Positions 1,273 through 17,878 of a stretch of DNA of 64,000 bases are shown here, piece by piece. The stretch is from Microthyrium microscopicum (lineage: Eukaryota): assembly GCA_010405405.1 (NCBI GenBank), contig MU004230.1, positions 2,886,627-2,950,626 on the forward strand, in the 5' to 3' direction. Under the pieces are notes generated by a model, which did not search any database, was not told where the DNA came from, and saw nothing but the letters and a program-made list of their open reading frames with translations. The position numbers were made by a program, and so were the translations under genes. The first letter of the stretch is position 1; each line of letters opens with the position of its first letter.

Positions 1273-1822
1273 GTATGACATCGCTAGTCTCATTTTCAGC
1301 ACACTGCGTGCTCAAAATCCGCTCAAATTCGCGTTTTGCACCTTCTGCCCTAATAACTGACTTAAATATCAGGCTGAGATAACTCGAAGCTTCATCCACT
1401 CTTCAATCTCCAGGATTGGCCTAACAGCATCTTTCAGCCTCACACAAGCATCCCGATAACCTTCATATTGACCAGTAAGTCTCAATGTCCTGTAGCTCCA
1501 TAACACTCCATGGCTAGCATAGAACGCCACGGTGTTACGTGCCCGAAGAACCGTCTATCTCTTTCAGCGCGTGCTGGCTGGCTTCTACAAGATTCTTACA
1601 TCAACCTTACACTGACGAATAATTTAGTCAAAGCCTCTGAAGTACGTTTTCCCATTACGCTTTTTTCCAACTGCTTTTCATGATGATCAAACATTATTCC
1701 AAAAGAGTCTTCATGCTTAGCGCCTGTTGACGGTGAAAACAACACAAATGCTATTTTCTGAACAGTCAAAGCTCACAGCTGCTGGTATTTCTACTTACAT
1801 GGCGACATGCTAATACGTCTAG
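1273..1822 (+). ncRNA. putative spliced non-coding host transcript (three introns; true ends unknown)
   Basis: Three canonical introns: 1273-1372 (GTATGA/ACTGAC/CAG), 1475-1627 (GTAAGT/ACTGAC/TAG) and 1642-1822 (GTACGT/GCTAAT/TAG), with a 14-nt exon at 1628-1641. No convincing ORF. Confidence 0.55.
1676..1766 (+). ncRNA. intronic box C/D snoRNA candidate
   Basis: Box C ATGATGA at 1680-1686 and box D CTGA at 1758-1761. Complementary flanks ACTG..TTCA / TGAACAGT. Lies inside intron 1642-1822, with box D 61 nt from the 3' splice site. Confidence 0.65.
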
Positions 1823-3226
1823 GAACAACAATTCTTTCAAATCAAATTGAGATAGAACTCTCTTCCGAATCCAGTTTCGGTTCGCTTTCCTTTCGATCGA
1901 CTCTGACGACCGGCGGCACATCTCCGGACCTGGAATACCACCCCCATCCTCCTCGTCGAATCCTCAATAACAAAAAGTGCAAATAATTCAAGTAGGTACA
2001 TCCCTCTGGCTCTGGACTACTGGAGTCCACAACTTCACAAGGTGGGCGATGATGATAGATTATCGCCTGCAGCGCGCGCGCATCCAATGCGGCTTTGATT
2101 AAAGACCACTGCGAGTTAGTAGCTCAAGGTGGCGACACTCGTAGCTTAGGATGCAATGGTTATCCGCGACTGGTCAGGTAAAGGGCGCAGTGATGGGTAG
2201 TGGCCCTGAGAGCGACATGCTTGGTTTTACCACCACGATGGTGGTAGTCTGAGCCCATTTTGTTATCCATATTTGATTTCATGTTTGGTTGTAAGCATCA
2301 TGAGCTAACAGTTCTATTTATACCAGATATAAAGCGCCAGAAAAAACAATAGGAAGCGGCTCCGACATCTTCGTCGTCAGAATAAAGGTCAGTGTCACCA
2401 CCGATACATTGCATTGACAAGTACTTGTCGGTCCAAGCTAACGGGTAGGCTAGGTTATTTGCTGAGACCAAAGAAGGGGACCGGAGCCTCTTCAATGTTG
2501 CCTATGATTCTAGTTTCAAGAACTGAATGTCGTGTGGTCTCACTACAGCTTCGTTGTCGAGAATACAGCCAAAGCTCCAAACAAATCCACCGTCTCAGCA
2601 CAGCTTCAAGTTTCGATTTTACCAGGTATTGCACTGGTAATCATTCATAAGGGTCATAAGCTTACCAGTTTATTCAGAGCATTACCTTACCGACGTCGAA
2701 TGCTATCATGACATTGCCGCTGAATCCTTTATTATCATTCGGTCCATTCCTGCCTCCTGAGTCACTACTCCAGCAACGAGCACCACATGGTGTTTGAACT
2801 TTACTTAAGGGTTCCTTCAAAAACAGCAAGCGCATCAAGTCTATCCACGCTTTTCGGATTGGTTGGGTTACACTTCAAGAGTCGTGGAGACATGATAGTC
2901 TCTGATACCCAACTTTCAGCATTTTGACAGTTTAGCCCCTTTTCACGAAATCATGTCAACAAATCAGTTGATAGTCCGCCACGGCGAGAATTGAAAGTTC
3001 GAACACCGATATATCTGGAGGAGAAGTCCTCGCAATGCGGCTACAGCATAGTAGCTACAGGATGACCTACTTCTTCCCTGTTCAAACATAAAATCGTTGA
3101 GAATATTGAAGAGCCAGATGCTAGCAGCTACTCCACGAAGTCGTATTCGCGGCGCGAAACTAAACACAGACAGTTGTCGTGGAAAGGTAAGTCAAAGCTT
3201 CTTTTCCTTTTGACATTCCTTTGCAA

Positions 3227-3333
3227 GTGAATGATGATTTGTTTTATCTTCATCTTCTTTTTGATCCCACTCAGGGTAAGTGAAGGTAAGTTCGGTGGGC
3301 TCCATGATATAAAAACGCAAGAAATCTGAAGGT
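3227..3333 (+). ncRNA. box C/D snoRNA-like element 1 (most divergent array member)
   Basis: Box C ATGATGA at 3231-3237, box D CTGA at 3326-3329. Internal CCCAC/GTGGG stem followed by CCATGATAT (C'-like). Confidence 0.65.
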
Positions 3334-3487
3334 TTTCACAAATTCATCTCATCCATAATCTTGGACTTGATCTGAGCTTTGCTAACATCTTCCAAACTTC
3401 TCAGATTCCTAATGCGAACTTGTTCCTATCTCGTCTCCAGTCAGTAAAGTTTTATCCCTGCTTCACTCATCCATATCCCATTGCAAC

Positions 3488-3588
3488 TTTCATGATGAAT
3501 TTTGGATCGTTTCTTTGCGAACATATCCCTCGCGGATCCGACACGAGGATTCCTGTGTGTTAATGGCATCAATCCCAATTCTGATCGA
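3488..3588 (+). ncRNA. box C/D snoRNA-like element 2
   Basis: Box C at 3492-3498, box D at 3581-3584. External stem CCCATTG/CGATGGG. Carries the conserved core CATATCCCTCGCGGA..CGACACGAG. Confidence 0.75.
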
Positions 3589-3733
3589 TGGGCATCTGTT
3601 TTCCCAGATTCAAATATTTTCTGCTTTGCCGCCTGTTGATAACTTCTATAATAGGCCTGTTCACAAAACGAGACGCGGAGATCAAAGCTAAGGTCAGTCG
3701 TGCTTACTTATTTCACAATTACCCACCCGCGCT

Positions 3734-3846
3734 CTTTATGATGAAACCATTGTACACATGTGTAGGCGTGCTTCTCTCGAGAGGCTGAAATTGCTTCGCA
3801 GCGAACATTTTTGTCCCATGGCATATATGTTACCAGTTCTGATCGA
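3734..3846 (+). ncRNA. box C/D snoRNA-like element 3
   Basis: Box C at 3738-3744, box D at 3839-3842. Keeps TTTGTCCCATGGCAT of the shared core; the rest has diverged. Confidence 0.7.
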
Positions 3847-3989
3847 TATCTTGCCTTTCTGGTCCATCTCGTCCCTTGTACGCGATTTGCTAATTCGTCA
3901 TCTTCTTCGCAGTGCAACACCTTTCCAAGACGAAAGAGTCTATAGGTCAGGCCTCCATTTCGCTCATTTCTCGTAGATCCCGACAGAGA

Positions 3990-4095
3990 ATCTCTGATGA
4001 TTGAACAAACATCTTGAGTTATTACACGCATATCCCTCACGAACACGACACAAGTTCTTTATGCCATGGCATGAAAATTTGTTCGTTCAGATTTC
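3990..4095 (+). ncRNA. box C/D snoRNA-like element 4 (degenerate boxes)
   Basis: CTGATGA at 3994-4000 and CAGA at 4088-4091 occupy the box C and D positions. Flanking stem GAGAA/TTCTC. Conserved core present. Confidence 0.6.
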
Positions 4096-4268
4096 TCATT
4101 CTTGTTGCATAGAAGTCATCGTAGTGGTACTGGAGAATTCTAATAACCCAACGAATACATGCGTAGGATCAAAAGTTTCTAAGTCGACCTAGAGCTCTAC
4201 CGTGGATTGAAAAACTAAGGTCAGTTTTCCATTTCCTTCTCCTTTAAACAGCGATTCCTCAACCTTGT

Positions 4269-4370
4269 TTCAATGATGAACAAAAAATTTCCTTTTTTGC
4301 AAACATATCCCTCGCGGATACGACACGAGTTCTTTGTGTTATGGCATAAAAATTCGCACATTCTGATTTC
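4269..4370 (+). ncRNA. box C/D snoRNA-like element 5
   Basis: Box C at 4273-4279, box D at 4363-4366. Conserved core present. Confidence 0.75.
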
Positions 4371-4538
4371 TCGTTTATCTTCCTTTGCCCCAGTCATTCT
4401 GGAGAAACTGTGCTAACTCGATGGCCACCTGCTTAGGATTGTATGCCTCTCAAGCATCTTAAAGTCCCCACCGTGAACATCAAAGTCAAAGTGAGTTCCT
4501 ATCTCTTCCTTTTTCTGTTAACAACACCTCAACCATAT

Positions 4539-4654
4539 TTCCATGATGAACAAAATTCAAAGCTTGTCCTTCTTTGCACGCATATCCCTCGCGGACACAA
4601 CACGAGTTCTTTGTGCCATGGCATAAAATTGAATCCTAATCAATTTCTGACTCT
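4539..4654 (+). ncRNA. box C/D snoRNA-like element 6
   Basis: Box C at 4543-4549, box D at 4647-4650. Conserved core present. Confidence 0.75.
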
Positions 4655-4821
4655 TCGTCTATCTTCCCTGGTCTCAGTCGTTTTGGCGAACTTGGCTAAC
4701 TCAATGGCTTCCCCGTTAGGATTGTGTGCCTGCTAATCACCTTGATATTCCTACCGCCATCACGAAGCTAATGTGAGTTCCCCAGTTCTTTCTTCTTCTA
4801 GTAGCAGCACTTCAACGTTGT

Positions 4822-4938
4822 TTCCATGATGAACCAAAATCCAAAACTTCTTCGTCATTTGCAAGCACATCCCTCGCGGACGCGACACGAGTTCTTTGTG
4901 CCATGGCATAAAAATGGTCCTTATCAAATCCTGATGTC
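4822..4938 (+). ncRNA. box C/D snoRNA-like element 7
   Basis: Box C at 4826-4832, box D at 4931-4934. Conserved core present. Confidence 0.75.
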
Positions 4939-6762
4939 TTTCTTTCTATACTTGCATACATGCCCAATGTTTTATGTTTTACTGACTTCTTGCAATTCGA
5001 GGTATTCCATGACACAAAAAAGTTGTCCCACACAGTATCATGCACCCTACCAGCTAAACTACCGGCTCCAGGTTTAGTTGCCAGAAAGGATATTAAGGCT
5101 TGTAGCTCATCGAGGTCAAAGGGCCATGCCACATCCACTATGAGCAGAGGATGGTGGCAGCCACTACCATTGAAGGAAGCATGCAATCTGACTTGTCAGT
5201 TGCCAATTCAAAGCATCTGCAATACATGGATACTTTCAATGCTAAAAAAGACTTCGAACATGGATCTCATTTCTTTTGCGATCTTGTTCACCACCTAGTA
5301 GGAATCAAATCAAGAGGACTCGCATATGATGCCTTCTTCTGATGAGACGACTTATTTTCCCTACACACAATCTTCTCAGCTTGGTTGAAAGTACTGCTAA
5401 TAGTTCCTCTTGCTTGGTCCATATCTTGTCCAGTCTCACGGTCACACCTCGATCTATCTAATTTGGATCAACAACATTTATGCTCAAAGTACTACTCATC
5501 CTCTTGTATTATACAAATCACGCCCAATTGTTTATGCGGAGATTACAGAAGCTGTCATTTTGATCCTAATGAGATTTAAGATTTCATATCTGCGTCAATG
5601 ATCAACTGTGCTGGAATACCAAAACGGACGCTTAAGCTACAACACTCACGACGCTTTTGAAAAAAAAGTTGCAAAACTGAGAGGTGTCAAGAAGCAAATA
5701 ATGCTTGCCTGCAGCGGTCGCATTCTCATTTCTACATTGTCCCGATCTCTTCGTGGAAAAGGTTAAACGCCTCATACAATGAGCAAGCTTTTTGAAAGGA
5801 GATGCTTATTGTCTAGGCCAAGGAGTCCCCTTGCTGGAGACAAGGAAGAGCTGATCATGGGCCTATCCACGAGGCAAGCTTTTATGTACGATGTGCGGGA
5901 TCCTTGGTTGTTGTATGCACGTCTTCGTTTGTTTACCCCCTGACTTTCCTCAGGTATCGGTGATGTTAGTAAAAGGGATTTAAAAAATTGTAGGCAATGG
6001 TACAACAAGTGTTAGAAGAAAACCATCGTCAATACAAATCAGAGAGAACTCTTCTCGTTAGTGAAACACAAAGCTTCATCCTGGAGAATCGCCGACTGGC
6101 TGTTTCAAAGAGCAAGGAAATAAATATCTCATGACCCGGCCATGTCTCCTCACAACATCAATGCACTCCGCGAACAAGCTCATTTAACCACCACTAGAAC
6201 GACGATCATCAAGCTCCCTGGTCATCCGGATCACCGATCTGTCAGTAAGCAGAAACCGATGAGCAACTTCGTGCCACTCAACACGAAATGTTGTCATTTC
6301 TGCGCCCAAGGTTACACTCCGTCAAGCTGCATCCACCATGATCAAATCCTTTGCCTAGCTTACCAGCTGTCTATTGGATAATTTGAAGGCCCTGCTCACT
6401 CAAGCTATACCTGTTCGCAGTGGGGAACCTTCATGAGCAGGGCTGTTCCGGTCGAAGAACAACCCAAAGGCTGGCAGATGAAAAAAGTAGAGTACAAATG
6501 ACAACCTAGGCCGGCAGACGTAATATTAAACCAATATGCCGACCGCCCGGTAGGCATACTATCTATTTAAGTAATAACTAGTCCGTGAGCCATTGGGGTT
6601 AAGGTGACCATAAAAGCTTGCCCAATTATTTCCTAACTGCAATATTAATTCTTAAAGGGCGCTATAATATCCCAGCTTTTGGTCAACATCACTAGTTGTT
6701 GTCTGTACTTGAAGCATCCCACCACTCTTGTTGGAGTCTGTTGTTGCGGTAATAATTTCGAT

Positions 6763-8224
6763 ATGGCCCGGCATCACTTGGCCGTTCTTTTTGCATGTCT
6801 GGTTTCGCAGACTCTGGCAAAGTATGATTGGCATGCTCCTCCACCAGCTGGAACAAACGATGCGCCTATACCGGTAGGGCCAGACGGAAAATATACAATT
6901 GTCTCGGAGGGAATTCGAGCTCAGTTCATTCCATATGGCGCCAGCATAACGAACCTTTTCATAAACGACACGCATAACGTGGAAAGAGACATTGTTCTGG
7001 GATTCGACAATGCAACTGCATACACTTTGGATACATCTCATCCTCATCTAGGCGGAGTTCCAGGTACGAGAAATCTGTGGAAGAATGAGTAAAGGGCAGT
7101 CGCGCTGACACGTTTGATTGAAGGTCGTTATGCGAATCGTATAAAGAACAGGTAACACGATTGGACTACGTTATATGGCTTCGTTAACGATAGTACAGTA
7201 CATTCACCATCGACGGCGTAACATCCAAGGTCATACCGAATGAGAACAACGGCGCTGATACTCTTCACGGAGGGCCTGACGGTTGGGACTATGTATGATG
7301 CCTGCTTTATGATCAATTTCAATACTAATCGAACGCAAAGCGCAACTTTACCGTAGTCAAGCACACCCGTTCGACAATCACCTTCAAAATCGATGATCCA
7401 GATGGCAAAGAAGGATTCCCAGGAGCCGTGACCTCCTACATTCACTATGGACTCTCACCATACCGGTGGCACTTCTACATGAACGCTACCGCGACCAAGG
7501 TTACACCCGTCATGCTCTCATCGCACACGTACTGGAATCTCGACGGTTTCCAAAACCCAAGCACCAATCTCGCACTCAACCACAGCCTCCTATTACCATT
7601 TTCTGGCCAGCGTGTCGACGTGGATGGCATCCTAATTCCCACGGGAAATATCATTCCAAACAAAATTGGCAGTGTCAACGACTTTTGGACAAAATCCAAG
7701 CAACTAGGCGCAGACTTGACCAAGAAGGAGGCACAAGGAAACTGCGGTACAGGGTGCACTGGCTACGACACTTGCTACCTGGTGAACCGCGAGCAATTTG
7801 GCCCCAACTATTTTGCACCACTGACTGATGGAGGCGCGTGGTGGGAGGGCGATCCAGTCGCAACAGTCCGAAGTGATTTCAGTGGCATCCAGCTTGATAT
7901 CTTTTCTGACCAGGATGCTTTCCAGGTGTACAGCTGCAATGGACAGAACAGTAAGCATGAAATGTGGTCCAAATCACACAAGGCTAATGTGTTATGACAG
8001 GTACCATGCCGCTGAAGAAAACCCAAGGCTTTTTCGGAGCAAACGCTACTTTTCCGCGCGTAGTACCACAATACGGATGTTTTGTGATGGAGGTTGAAGA
8101 TTGGATTGATGGCATAAACAATCCAGAATGGGGACGCGATGCGAAGCAAATTATTGGACCCAAAACTTTGCCATACGAGCTGGAAGCTATCTACTCATTC
8201 TCGATAGCAAACAAAAAGCAGTGA
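6763..8224 (+). CDS. secreted aldose 1-epimerase (galactose mutarotase family)
   Basis: Exons 6763-7063, 7124-7151, 7199-7292, 7341-7950, 8001-8224. Signal-peptide-like N terminus. Motifs GRYANRI, LHGG, EGFPG, HTYWNL. Confidence 0.9.
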
Positions 8225-15473: not shown

Positions 15474-17878
15474 ATGGCATTGCAAGGCGTGTTATCGCGA
15501 CTGCTTTTGCTGGTGCTTGTGCTGGCGATATGCGCCACGCAGACCGCGCACGCGGCGCCGTCTTGGTGGAAGCGAAGCTTTAGTCGCTGGAAGATGGGGA
15601 TTGAAGGTGAAGAGATGCTTGCGCCTGCTGCGCCGGATGGACATCATTATTTGTTAGGCGTCGGGAAAGGTGATATCACCGGGTAAGAATTTTCAATTGC
15701 TGGGCAAGAGGATGAGCTAATTTTTCTAGTCCGGTCGTGGATTTGATATTCATGGGATATGCGGATGCAAATCAGATTGGAAGTGGAGTCCGGCAGCGAC
15801 TTTATTCTCGCGCGTTCATCATTGGTGACCTAAAGAAACCCGAAGATCGAATTGTTTATTTAGTCCTCGATATCCAGTCTGGAGATATTGCCGTTCGGGA
15901 TGGTGTTCTTAAGGGACTCCAACAGCTAGGACCCGAGTATTCAATGTATACAAAAGACAATATTGCGCTTACTGGAACTCATTCCCATTCCGGACCTGGA
16001 GCATGGACGAACTATTTCCTACATCATGCAAGTACCAGAGGCTTTGATAGGCCATCCTGGGAGGCGATTGTGAACGGCACTGTTTTGTCGATCAAACGTG
16101 CTCATGAGAAGTTGAAAGAAGGACGCATTAGCTGGGGAAAAATAAGACTCGAGGATGCAAACTTCAATCGTAGCCCGTCTTCATACAGAGCGAATCCAGA
16201 ATCAGAACGCACCCAGTATACAGATAATGTTGATAAAGAAATGACCATGCTACGGTTCGCGGATCTGGATCATAAAGATTATGGGGTCTTGACTTTCTTT
16301 CCAACACATGGCACTTCAATGTATTTGAATCAAACTATGGTCACAGGAGACAACAAAGGCGTTGCAGCATACCTATTCGAGAGAAAAATGCAAGCCAAGT
16401 TTCCAGGATTCATTGCCGGCTTTTCTCAGTCAAATGTTGGAGACGTCACTCCTAATGTGCTAGGTGATTATTGTGAGAGTGGACCAGATCTTGGGAAGCG
16501 ATGTAATGAGACGGATACTACTTGTGGTGGTATAGTCGCTCCATGTCACTCAAGAGGGCCTTTCTTTGGTCTCAATGATGGTGGAAGGAAAAGTTGCTTC
16601 GAGATTGGCAAGCGTCAATTTGAAAAAGCGTATGAACTTCATCAAATAATGAGTGTCCGAGGACCAAATGCAACAGAGATTCCGGTTCGAGGACCAGTCA
16701 AGGCATTTCACACTTTCCAAAACATGAGCTGGCAGGAATTTCCGCATCCAAATGGCTCTACTGTAATGACATGTCCATCCGCTATGGGCTACAGCTTTGC
16801 AGCTGGCACATCAGATGGCCCAGGAATTGCAGACTTTCGGCAAGGTTTGACGGGTGATCAACCACCAGTCAGTCCGATCTGGCCCATTCTAAGAGGACTC
16901 CTCAAGAATCCAACGCCGCGCCAGAAGGAGTGCCATGGAGTCAAGCCTATCTTACTAGACATCGGAGAGATGACAACACCATATGAATGGGGCCCCAATA
17001 TTGCCGATATACAACTAATGCGAGTTGGACCAATCATCTTGATCATTTCAACCGGTGAAGCGACAACCATGTCTGGTCGGCGATGGAAATCGGCAATCAG
17101 CAAGGCCGTACTTGATCAAGGCATCTTCAAAGATCATCCAAGGACGGCAAACGAAACTCCTGTTGTGGTTTTGGGCGGGCCAGCAAATAGTTATACTCAT
17201 TACATCACAACGGAAGAAGAATACGCAAAACAGCGATACGAAGGTGCCAGTACGCTTTATGGTCCACACACGCTGAATGCGATGATCCATTATAGTATTC
17301 AGGGCCTCAGATATCTTTCGGCAACAAATGAGGTGAAACCACCAGCAGGACCACAACCTCCAATAAATGTTGATCGAGCTATGAGTCTCATTCCAAGTGT
17401 TTCTTCTGACTCCACGCCCTGGGGCAAGAATTATGGCGACGTACTGAATCCACCCAATGCCACATACAACAGAGGAGATACCATCAACGTGACATTCGTA
17501 GGAGCCAGTCCGCGAAACAATCTTAGGCTTGAAGGTACTTTCGCCGCAGTGCAGAAGCTGAATGCAGAGAAAGCGATCAAGCGAGAACAAGCCGTGTTGC
17601 CAGATCCAGAACGTTCAGCATTTTCCACCAATGAGATCACACTTGACCAATCTGATGCTGAATGGACCACCGTACGGGATGATTTCGACTGGGAGTTGGT
17701 CATGGAGTGGAAGAAAGTCGGGACTGTTTTCAAACATAGCGAGTCTACAATAAGTTGGGAAACAGCCGCCGACACTGAACCTGGGACTTATCGATTTGTG
17801 TACAATGGGGATTGGAGAGCAATTAGTGGAGCGATTACTCCATTCCAAGGGATCAGTCCGTCTTTTACGGTCAGTTAA
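15474..17878 (+). CDS. neutral/alkaline non-lysosomal ceramidase
   Basis: Exons 15474-15682 and 15730-17878. Signal anchor, GVGKGDITGP, RQRLYSRAFI, GTHSHSGP, YEGASTLYGPHTL. Confidence 0.92.

Follow-up and report, generated by a model that had tools for sequence, protein, structure and literature searches.

Seven putative intronic box C/D snoRNA genes, at least five of them paralogues, in a spliced non-coding host gene of the Dothideomycete Microthyrium microscopicum

Introduction

In Neurospora crassa, 45 of 55 box C/D small nucleolar RNAs (snoRNAs) are intronic, one per intron, and six snoRNA clusters reside in host genes, those of clusters I-V having short open reading frames (ORFs) only (159-267 bp), like mammalian UHG and gas5 (Liu et al. 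2009, PMC2780460). Three snoRNA clusters, including the seven-member snR78-snR72 cluster (cluster I, about 1.5 kb long; PMC5824354), occur in nearly all fungi analysed by Luo et al. (2013, PMC3596301), and in Euascomycetes all members of the three clusters are intronic and their hosts non-coding (PMC3596301). Here we analyse a 64-kb stretch of contig MU004230.1 of Microthyrium microscopicum, a Dothideomycete of a sparsely sampled lineage; this stretch at its full length is referred to as the window. Seven consecutive plus-strand introns of 215-229 nt each lie at positions 3187-5001 of the window, and we consider it probable that they belong to a UHG-like non-coding host with seven intronic C/D snoRNA genes, at least five of which are lineage-specific paralogues whose conserved core acts beyond a standard methylation site in ribosomal RNA (rRNA).

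The mammalian SNORD115 and SNORD116 arrays consist of amplified units of an intron-borne C/D RNA and an exon of a non-coding host, and their RNAs are without canonical rRNA targets. In plants (rice, Arabidopsis), local duplication has led to clusters that contain several variants of one C/D snoRNA, intronic clusters among them (PMC2780460). Most snoRNA genes of N. crassa are singletons, a state that the authors connect with repeat-induced point mutation; the snoRNAs mostly lie 41-60 nt from the 5' splice site, and the predicted targets of the C/D snoRNAs include small nuclear RNAs (snRNAs) and transfer RNAs (tRNAs) besides rRNA (PMC2780460). Fungal species often carry several snoRNA paralogues, some of which persist in clades, such as CD_41 (AM921940) in Leotiomycetes, and several fungal 'orphans' have been given targets by multi-species comparison, among them U6 for a D' guide (Canzler et al. 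2018, PMC5824354). AM921940 is the Aspergillus fumigatus orphan Afu-298 (Jöchl et al. 2008, PMC2377427).

Results

The seven introns open with GTAAGT (one), GTCAGT (three), GTCAGG (one) or GTGAGT (two) donors, and a branch-site-like motif (CTAAC-, CTAAT-, CTGAC- or TTGAT-like) lies 15-26 nt upstream of every acceptor (7 of 7). Each intron contains a single box C, which reads ATGATGA in six of the seven units and CTGATGA in unit 4, and a single box D, which is CTGA in the same proportion of units and CAGA in unit 4. Box C is found 44-53 nt downstream of the donor and the end of box D 67-75 nt from the acceptor in all seven units, with a C-to-D span of 93-109 nt; the spacing of the boxes to both splice sites is held within 9 nt over the units. 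The window read, the motif scan and the coordinate table (Table 1, which also lists the internal exons 2-7) bear out every figure for intron lengths, box sequences, spacings and exon sizes that had been given in an earlier note on this DNA. Likewise, a class test for a box C near the 5' end and a box D near the 3' end, 60-130 nt apart, revealed exact boxes in six of the seven units.

Splicing was observed in contigs assembled from one public run (X1) that matches the stretch (0.19 of the sampled words present), which we compared with the window over positions 1500-7000. Intron-less GT..AG joints in its contigs favour the view that the run is RNA. In one contig of 1184 nt, which matches the window without differences, 4490 is followed directly by 4720 and 4772 by 5002, in line with the predicted boundaries of introns 6 and 7, and the two stretches that it skips (4491-4719 and 4773-5001) are 229 nt each and both GT..AG. 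The host transcript is spliced at introns 6 and 7 as predicted, at the exact nucleotides; regarding the junction reads that the earlier note had proposed to check for all seven introns, introns 1-5 lie outside the spliced contigs. A second contig (4253-4452) is unspliced and runs from unit 5 into exon 6, and a third (2775-2955) possibly represents the first exon. No contig covers 2972-4252, a gap that is uninformative on expression. Contig depth over the host gene is 3-10, versus about 257 for a neighbouring 4531-nt contig.

We modelled the spliced RNA as 2775-5589 minus the seven introns (1266 nt), and it has stops in all three frames and a longest ATG-initiated ORF of 63 codons. Consistent with the proposal that the host gene is non-coding, none of nine stop-to-stop frames (71-128 aa, over the array, either strand) reached the Pfam cut-off (best E values 0.015 and 0.089), and no protein-coding repeat gene was recognised among these frames on either strand. 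ORF 2333-2650 likewise has no Pfam match. A reading of the locus as protein-coding (a repeat gene) or as the product of chance could appeal to the stop-to-stop frames of 88-128 aa that lie over the array on both strands. It is at odds with the Pfam result and with the stops in the three frames of the spliced RNA, and also with a pattern test in which a regular expression for donor, box C, box D and acceptor, spaced as in the array, was run over the whole window: it matched six times on the plus strand, always within the array, and never on the minus strand (unit 7 escapes solely through its GAG acceptor), whereas 200 shuffled windows gave 0.14 matches on average and two at most. Together with the exact splice junctions, these results refute the coding or chance reading for practical purposes, and we accord it a negligible probability. 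All features looked for in a UHG-like host were found, namely one snoRNA per intron with splice signals and distances, splicing, and little coding potential. The array thus sits in a bona fide snoRNA host gene, spliced and non-coding, of a type common in fungi.

Units 2, 4, 5, 6 and 7 can be aligned along the whole RNA body, with pairwise identities of 64-85%, where shuffles average 49% and reach 57% at most. In addition, the 5' intron flanks of units 5, 6 and 7 are 67-74% identical (null maximum 61%), units 5 and 6 share 71% identity in the 3' flank and 67% in the next exon, and Tandem Repeats Finder detects a repeat in 4296-4913, with a period of 283 nt and 77% identity. Because RNA bodies, flanks, exon (units 5 and 6) and the 283-nt period agree, the tandem duplication of the whole exon-intron-snoRNA unit is evident, in units 5-7 at the least. 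Units 2 and 4 can still be aligned with units 5-7 in the RNA body only. The earlier note had extended whole-unit duplication to the entire array, which our alignments favour for units 5-7, and as regards the RNA body for units 2 and 4, while they do not establish it for units 1 and 3. A covariance model (R1) built from the five paralogues along the lines proposed there, and run over the 64 kb, recovered its own training units at E values of 1e-14 to 3e-23, self-matches that are obtained by construction. The best non-training match was unit 3 (11.4 bits, E 3.7, not significant); unit 1 was absent at E<=10, and no further copy came up in the remainder of the 64 kb. What units 1 and 3 share with the rest is limited to short motifs (CCATGRYAT before the D-side segment, and ATCCC..CTC), and a common origin with the other units is plausible. 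Substitutions among units 4-7 gave transitions:transversions comparisons of 35:22, 28:35, 21:33 and 42:39, without a transition excess, and there is therefore no sign of repeat-induced point mutation.

Unit 1 has a feature of its own, in that its body contains a CCCAC...GTGGG hairpin enclosing two GGTAAGT motifs 10 nt apart (3275-3292). Used as donors, these consensus 5' splice-site motifs would shorten the intron to 129 or 119 nt and place box C in the exon.

The five paralogues share a central core of 52-56 nt with the pattern TTTGC..CATATCCCTCGCGGA..CGACACGAG..TTCTTTGTGCCATGGCAT. Mean pairwise identity is 0.94 in box C and 0.82 in the core, where 35 of 56 columns are invariant, and drops to 0.36 in the segment after box C and 0.43 in the segment before box D. 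The core is better conserved than the rest of the intron in ten of ten unit pairs (Fisher p 0.0036 to 4e-11), pairs that are mutually dependent and in which the hardly alignable flanks inflate the differences. In ordinary guide families, the antisense elements beside D and D' are the conserved parts. The paralogues display the reverse of this usual guide-family pattern, their guide positions being the parts that vary and their interior the part that is kept. In units 4, 6 and 7, the core also includes a perfect 10-nt palindrome, TGCCATGGCA (4063-4072, 4615-4624 and 4900-4909), which is unable to fold on itself and could mediate pairing between two RNA copies.

These patterns bear on the possibility that the array is mostly evolutionary debris, its units being kept by the splicing need of the host or by neutrality and most of them giving no stable or functional RNA. 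The deviant boxes of unit 4, the most degenerate copy of the array, are what one would expect of debris, as are weak terminal stems, the failure to find targets (see below) and the divergence of the flanks, whose identity across copies has fallen to 50-74%. When flank duplexes were evaluated as terminal stems, units 2, 4 and 1 scored -6.9, -6.0 and -3.8 kcal/mol, respectively, and the other four units -2.0 kcal/mol or weaker. Yet boxes C and D are intact in six of seven units and keep their splice-site spacing despite near-random flanks, and in each unit the conservation of the core significantly exceeds that of the remaining intron. We therefore regard debris as improbable, if less so than the coding reading.

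None of the elements is assigned by Rfam 15 to a described cluster, an outcome that the earlier note had considered possible: there was no match at the gathering score in the whole window. At E<=10, four matches appeared within 2900-5300, three of them on the minus strand and one, a mir-375 fragment, on the plus strand, all far below the cut-off; nothing snoRNA-like emerged on the plus strand of the locus, nor any SNORD115 or SNORD116 match. Rfam includes Afu-derived snoRNA families, none of which matched the locus at E<=10.

Similarly, a first core pattern had no match in metagenome contigs. A second core pattern, with 21 specified bases, matched one marine sequence represented by four metagenome contigs (L082-L085), a match that we judged to be chance because it comes without C/D boxes and without the remaining core. 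The marine sequence looks protein-coding. Homologues of the neighbouring aldose 1-epimerase, the closest of which are 67-73% identical, lie on metagenomic contigs of 1.5-1.8 kb, too short for synteny, and a literature search by sequence string gave a sole, unrelated match.

For the target search, we assembled an rRNA reference from heterologous eukaryotic rRNA genes (rDNA) that contaminate bacterial assemblies; Rfam detected no rRNA within the window. A scan with a 5.8S primer returned 59 loci, and Rfam identified a complete small-subunit (SSU) rRNA on L053 as well as SSU, 5.8S and large-subunit (LSU) rRNA (positions 1-1773) on L050, two more contigs of whose assembly supply the LSU to about 2215 and then 2270-3401. 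A sarcin-ricin loop motif scan of viral contigs gave 14 loci, and the eight that were checked contained no rRNA. With this reference, few ungapped duplexes reach 10 bp at up to two G-U pairs, and just two of them abut a D box: unit 5 forms 10 bp with the variable LSU 3' end, and the degenerate unit 4 forms 10 bp including two G-U pairs. A box-anchored score exceeded the shuffles at none of 24 tetramers within one mismatch of CTGA (top score 25.0 versus 28, the best of 60 shuffled guides, whose median was 20.5), and the best duplex energies of the two core halves (-23.5 and -24.3 kcal/mol) fall inside 30 shuffles each (best -28.1 and -27.0 kcal/mol). As a measure of the chance background, the window contains 522 CTGA sites, six of which have upstream of them a stretch of 11 nt or more with perfect complementarity to rRNA, and none of these six has a box C. 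Accordingly scored, no antisense element of at least 10 nt to SSU, 5.8S or LSU rRNA was recognised next to D or D'. On this evidence, and with a heterologous reference, all seven units appear to be orphans with respect to mature rRNA, which is consistent with their earlier likening to orphan snoRNAs. Two candidate pairings were rejected: one between the D-guide of unit 3 and LSU ~2063-2074 of the reference, with eight Watson-Crick pairs outside the box, and one between the core and SSU 193-204, which has 12 bp with a mismatch and lies within the null.

The contaminating rDNA contigs are an observation in their own right, as SSU, 5.8S and LSU were recognised by Rfam in several bacterial assemblies (L050/L081, L080, L053, L010, L027, L031 and L048). 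One contaminated assembly holds LSU pieces of two eukaryotes that are 84-86% identical to each other. L075 (G001:C361:1-4225) has a full 5.8S at one end and no LSU downstream and may be a chimeric contig, and L016, which comes from a 245-kb contig, matches the 5.8S primer exactly over 20 nt and has no rRNA by Rfam.

The target search also bears on two rival explanations in which the units guide methylation. First, they could be ordinary guides whose targets lie in variable rRNA regions, pre-rRNA spacers, snRNAs (e.g. U6, U2) or tRNAs of this species. Precedents exist in the C/D snoRNAs of Neurospora that are predicted to target snRNAs and tRNAs too (PMC2780460) and in the reassignment of fungal 'orphans' to targets, the D' guide to U6 included (Canzler 2018, PMC5824354), and the incomplete, heterologous reference leaves room for such targets. 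Moreover, D'-like tetramers (CGGA or NCGA), aligned with the canonical internal CTGA of unit 3, follow closely after the end of the core, and because the core adjoins these tetramers, a D' guide inside the core is conceivable. Conversely, no anchored duplex rose above shuffles at the 24 D-like positions, the D' boxes are degenerate in the five paralogues, and the segment directly upstream of box D is among the least conserved parts, the opposite of guide families. A search for U6 snRNA in one rDNA-bearing assembly and 14 control genomes found nothing. We consider ordinary guides an unlikely explanation, albeit the least unlikely of the alternatives.

Second, the locus could be the orthologue of fungal cluster I (snR78-77-76-75-74-73-72), which has the same count (up to seven) and an all-intronic architecture in Euascomycetes and is present in nearly all fungi analysed (PMC3596301), at about 1.5 kb (PMC5824354). 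However, the members of cluster I are described as guides, single or double, that are unrelated to one another and have conserved rRNA targets, and here there are five paralogues, no box-anchored complement to the heterologous rRNA above chance, and no plus-strand Rfam match at E<=10. Conserved guides to 25S and 18S sites of the kind that mark cluster I were not found with this rRNA. Orthology to cluster I is in our view very improbable.

Downstream of the array lie an aldose 1-epimerase gene (plus strand) and a GEN1/Yen1-type nuclease gene (minus strand); the 4531-nt RNA contig of high depth mentioned above extends over this region (6220-7000 and beyond). Farther away, a ceramidase ORF (15716-17878) shows 99% identity to the NCBI protein of M. 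microscopicum and has its nearest NCBI proteins outside this species at 66% identity. The 1184-nt contig, which covers 5002-6125 beyond the array, also skips 60 nt at 5590-5649 with CT..AC ends, which correspond to a canonical GTGAGT...CAG intron of the minus strand. It follows from this skip that a spliced antisense or divergent minus-strand transcript overlaps the last exon of the host. No ORF was found in this transcript, which may diverge from the aldose 1-epimerase promoter.

Table 1. Positions of exons, introns and C/D units of the host gene in the window
Feature	Position	Strand	Length (nt)	Elements	Basis
Putative first exon(s) of host gene; provisional 5' end	2775-3186	+		ends at GTAAGT donor 3187	RNA-derived contig over 2775-2955, of either strand
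Intron 1, C/D unit 1	3187-3404	+	218	box C 3231-3237; box D 3326-3329	sequence signals
Exon 2	3405-3439	+	35		splice signals alone
Intron 2, C/D unit 2	3440-3654	+	215	box C 3492-3498; box D 3581-3584; core 3514-3569	sequence signals; paralogue of units 4-7
Exon 3	3655-3692	+	38		coordinate table
Intron 3, C/D unit 3	3693-3912	+	220	box C 3738-3744; internal CTGA (D') 3785-3788; box D 3839-3842	sequence signals
Exon 4	3913-3945	+	33		coordinate table
Intron 4, C/D unit 4	3946-4166	+	221	box C (CTGATGA) 3994-4000; box D (CAGA) 4088-4091; core about 4021-4072	sequence signals
Exon 5	4167-4219	+	53		coordinate table
Intron 5, C/D unit 5	4220-4436	+	217	box C 4273-4279; box D 4363-4366; core 4296-4347	sequence signals; unspliced RNA contig over 4253-4452
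Exon 6	4437-4490	+	54		in spliced RNA contig
Intron 6, C/D unit 6	4491-4719	+	229	box C 4543-4549; box D 4647-4650; core 4573-4624	junction 4490/4720, GT..AG, in RNA contig
Exon 7	4720-4772	+	53		in spliced RNA contig
Intron 7, C/D unit 7	4773-5001	+	229	box C 4826-4832; box D 4931-4934; core 4858-4909	junction 4772/5002, GT..AG, in RNA contig
Last exon of host gene; provisional 3' end	5002-5589	+			joined to exon 7 in RNA contig

Discussion

We propose that the primary transcript of this host gene is spliced and that each intron of ~220 nt would bear one C/D snoRNA gene, at a distance of about 45-53 nt from the donor and about 70 nt from the acceptor. In the established pathway for intronic snoRNAs, the lariat is debranched and exonucleases trim the RNA to the particle assembled on the C/D motif. 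Debranching and trimming of the array introns in this manner would yield RNAs of about 95-115 nt. Units 2, 4, 5, 6 and 7 may have arisen by repeated tandem duplication of the intron, which for units 5-7 would have included the neighbouring exon, with the core and boxes C and D held constant and the stretches beside box C and box D left to drift. The RNAs could then act via the conserved core on a non-standard target, or as non-modifying small nucleolar ribonucleoproteins (snoRNPs).

Several points weigh against this proposal. Concerning the units themselves, both boxes of unit 4 are deviant (CUGAUGA and CAGA in the RNA), the terminal stems of units 3, 5, 6 and 7 are weak or absent, and the two small hairpins that RNAalifold predicts in the core come with no compensatory changes; conservation of the core could be partly due to gene conversion, and the core patterns uncovered no relatives of the array in metagenome contigs. 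As to expression, run X1 was labelled RNA by guess, and its junctions cover two of the seven introns (6 and 7), introns 1-5 resting on sequence signals. Finally, the rRNA reference is not the species' own and has a gap of about 9 nt between LSU pieces, the negative result that it gave pertains to mature SSU, 5.8S and LSU, and the guide search had no positive control, as the window has no other snoRNA.

Whereas the usual picture of fungal snoRNA clusters is one of unrelated, deeply conserved rRNA guides, and that of snoRNA genes one of singletons for the most part, the same architecture here amplifies a single family, and the usual pattern of conservation is reversed, in that the interior stays constant while the guide positions drift. 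If the RNAs prove to be stable and bound by core snoRNP proteins, the locus would provide a tractable haploid model for the origin of an orphan C/D family by unit duplication and for roles of C/D RNAs beyond rRNA methylation. If they are not stable, it still illustrates how intron-exon units multiply inside a non-coding gene. In either case, repeats of about 280 nt per unit have been kept without sign of repeat-induced point mutation.

With the mammalian SNORD115 and SNORD116 arrays, the locus has in common the tandem amplification of a snoRNA-intron-exon unit in a non-coding host (here units 5-7). Unlike them, it shows no homology to either family, has 5-7 copies rather than tens, and its copies are much more diverged (RNA body 64-85%), the guide-position segments not being conserved; imprinting and tissue specificity are not applicable to a fungus. 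That it represents a fungal counterpart of these orphan arrays, a tandem, lineage-specific C/D family held by its core and directed to a target other than rRNA (mRNA, pre-rRNA spacer or another snoRNP) or acting as non-modifying chaperones, is a tentative idea that we would sooner doubt than adopt. In having several variants of one C/D snoRNA from local duplication, the array also resembles the plant clusters (PMC2780460). The plant isoforms keep rRNA guides, none of which are recognised in the units described here, and a single intron of rice may contain several snoRNAs, compared with strictly one per intron in the array.

The nearest relatives in organisation are clusters I-VI of N. crassa and clusters I-III of Luo et al., with which the locus shares a non-coding spliced host, one C/D snoRNA per intron and canonical splice signals. 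The donor-to-box C distance of 44-53 nt compares with 41-60 nt between 5' splice site and snoRNA in Neurospora, the host ORF of at most 63 codons with ORFs of 159-267 bp in Neurospora hosts, and the seven snoRNAs per host with up to seven in known fungal clusters (PMC2780460, PMC3596301). Like CD_41 (Afu-298), which is restricted to Pezizomycotina and was first annotated as an orphan, the array is a multi-copy C/D family; CD_41, compared here by description only, has its paralogues in Leotiomycetes, whereas the array is found in a Dothideomycete (PMC5824354). The statement in the earlier note that such an array was not known in fungi is thus not tenable, since UHG-like hosts with one C/D snoRNA per intron are described in Neurospora and Euascomycetes (PMC2780460, PMC3596301) and persistent snoRNA paralogues in fungi are likewise on record (PMC5824354). 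The host-gene architecture is the documented norm in filamentous fungi and not new. Unlike the known fungal clusters, which consist of unrelated snoRNAs with conserved rRNA guides, the array has at least five paralogues with no detectable rRNA guide and no Rfam match, and within an incomplete coverage of the literature we came across no account of an orphan family present in five or more copies within one fungal host. What is unusual about this locus is that a single family, without a recognisable rRNA target, is repeated at least five times in one host.

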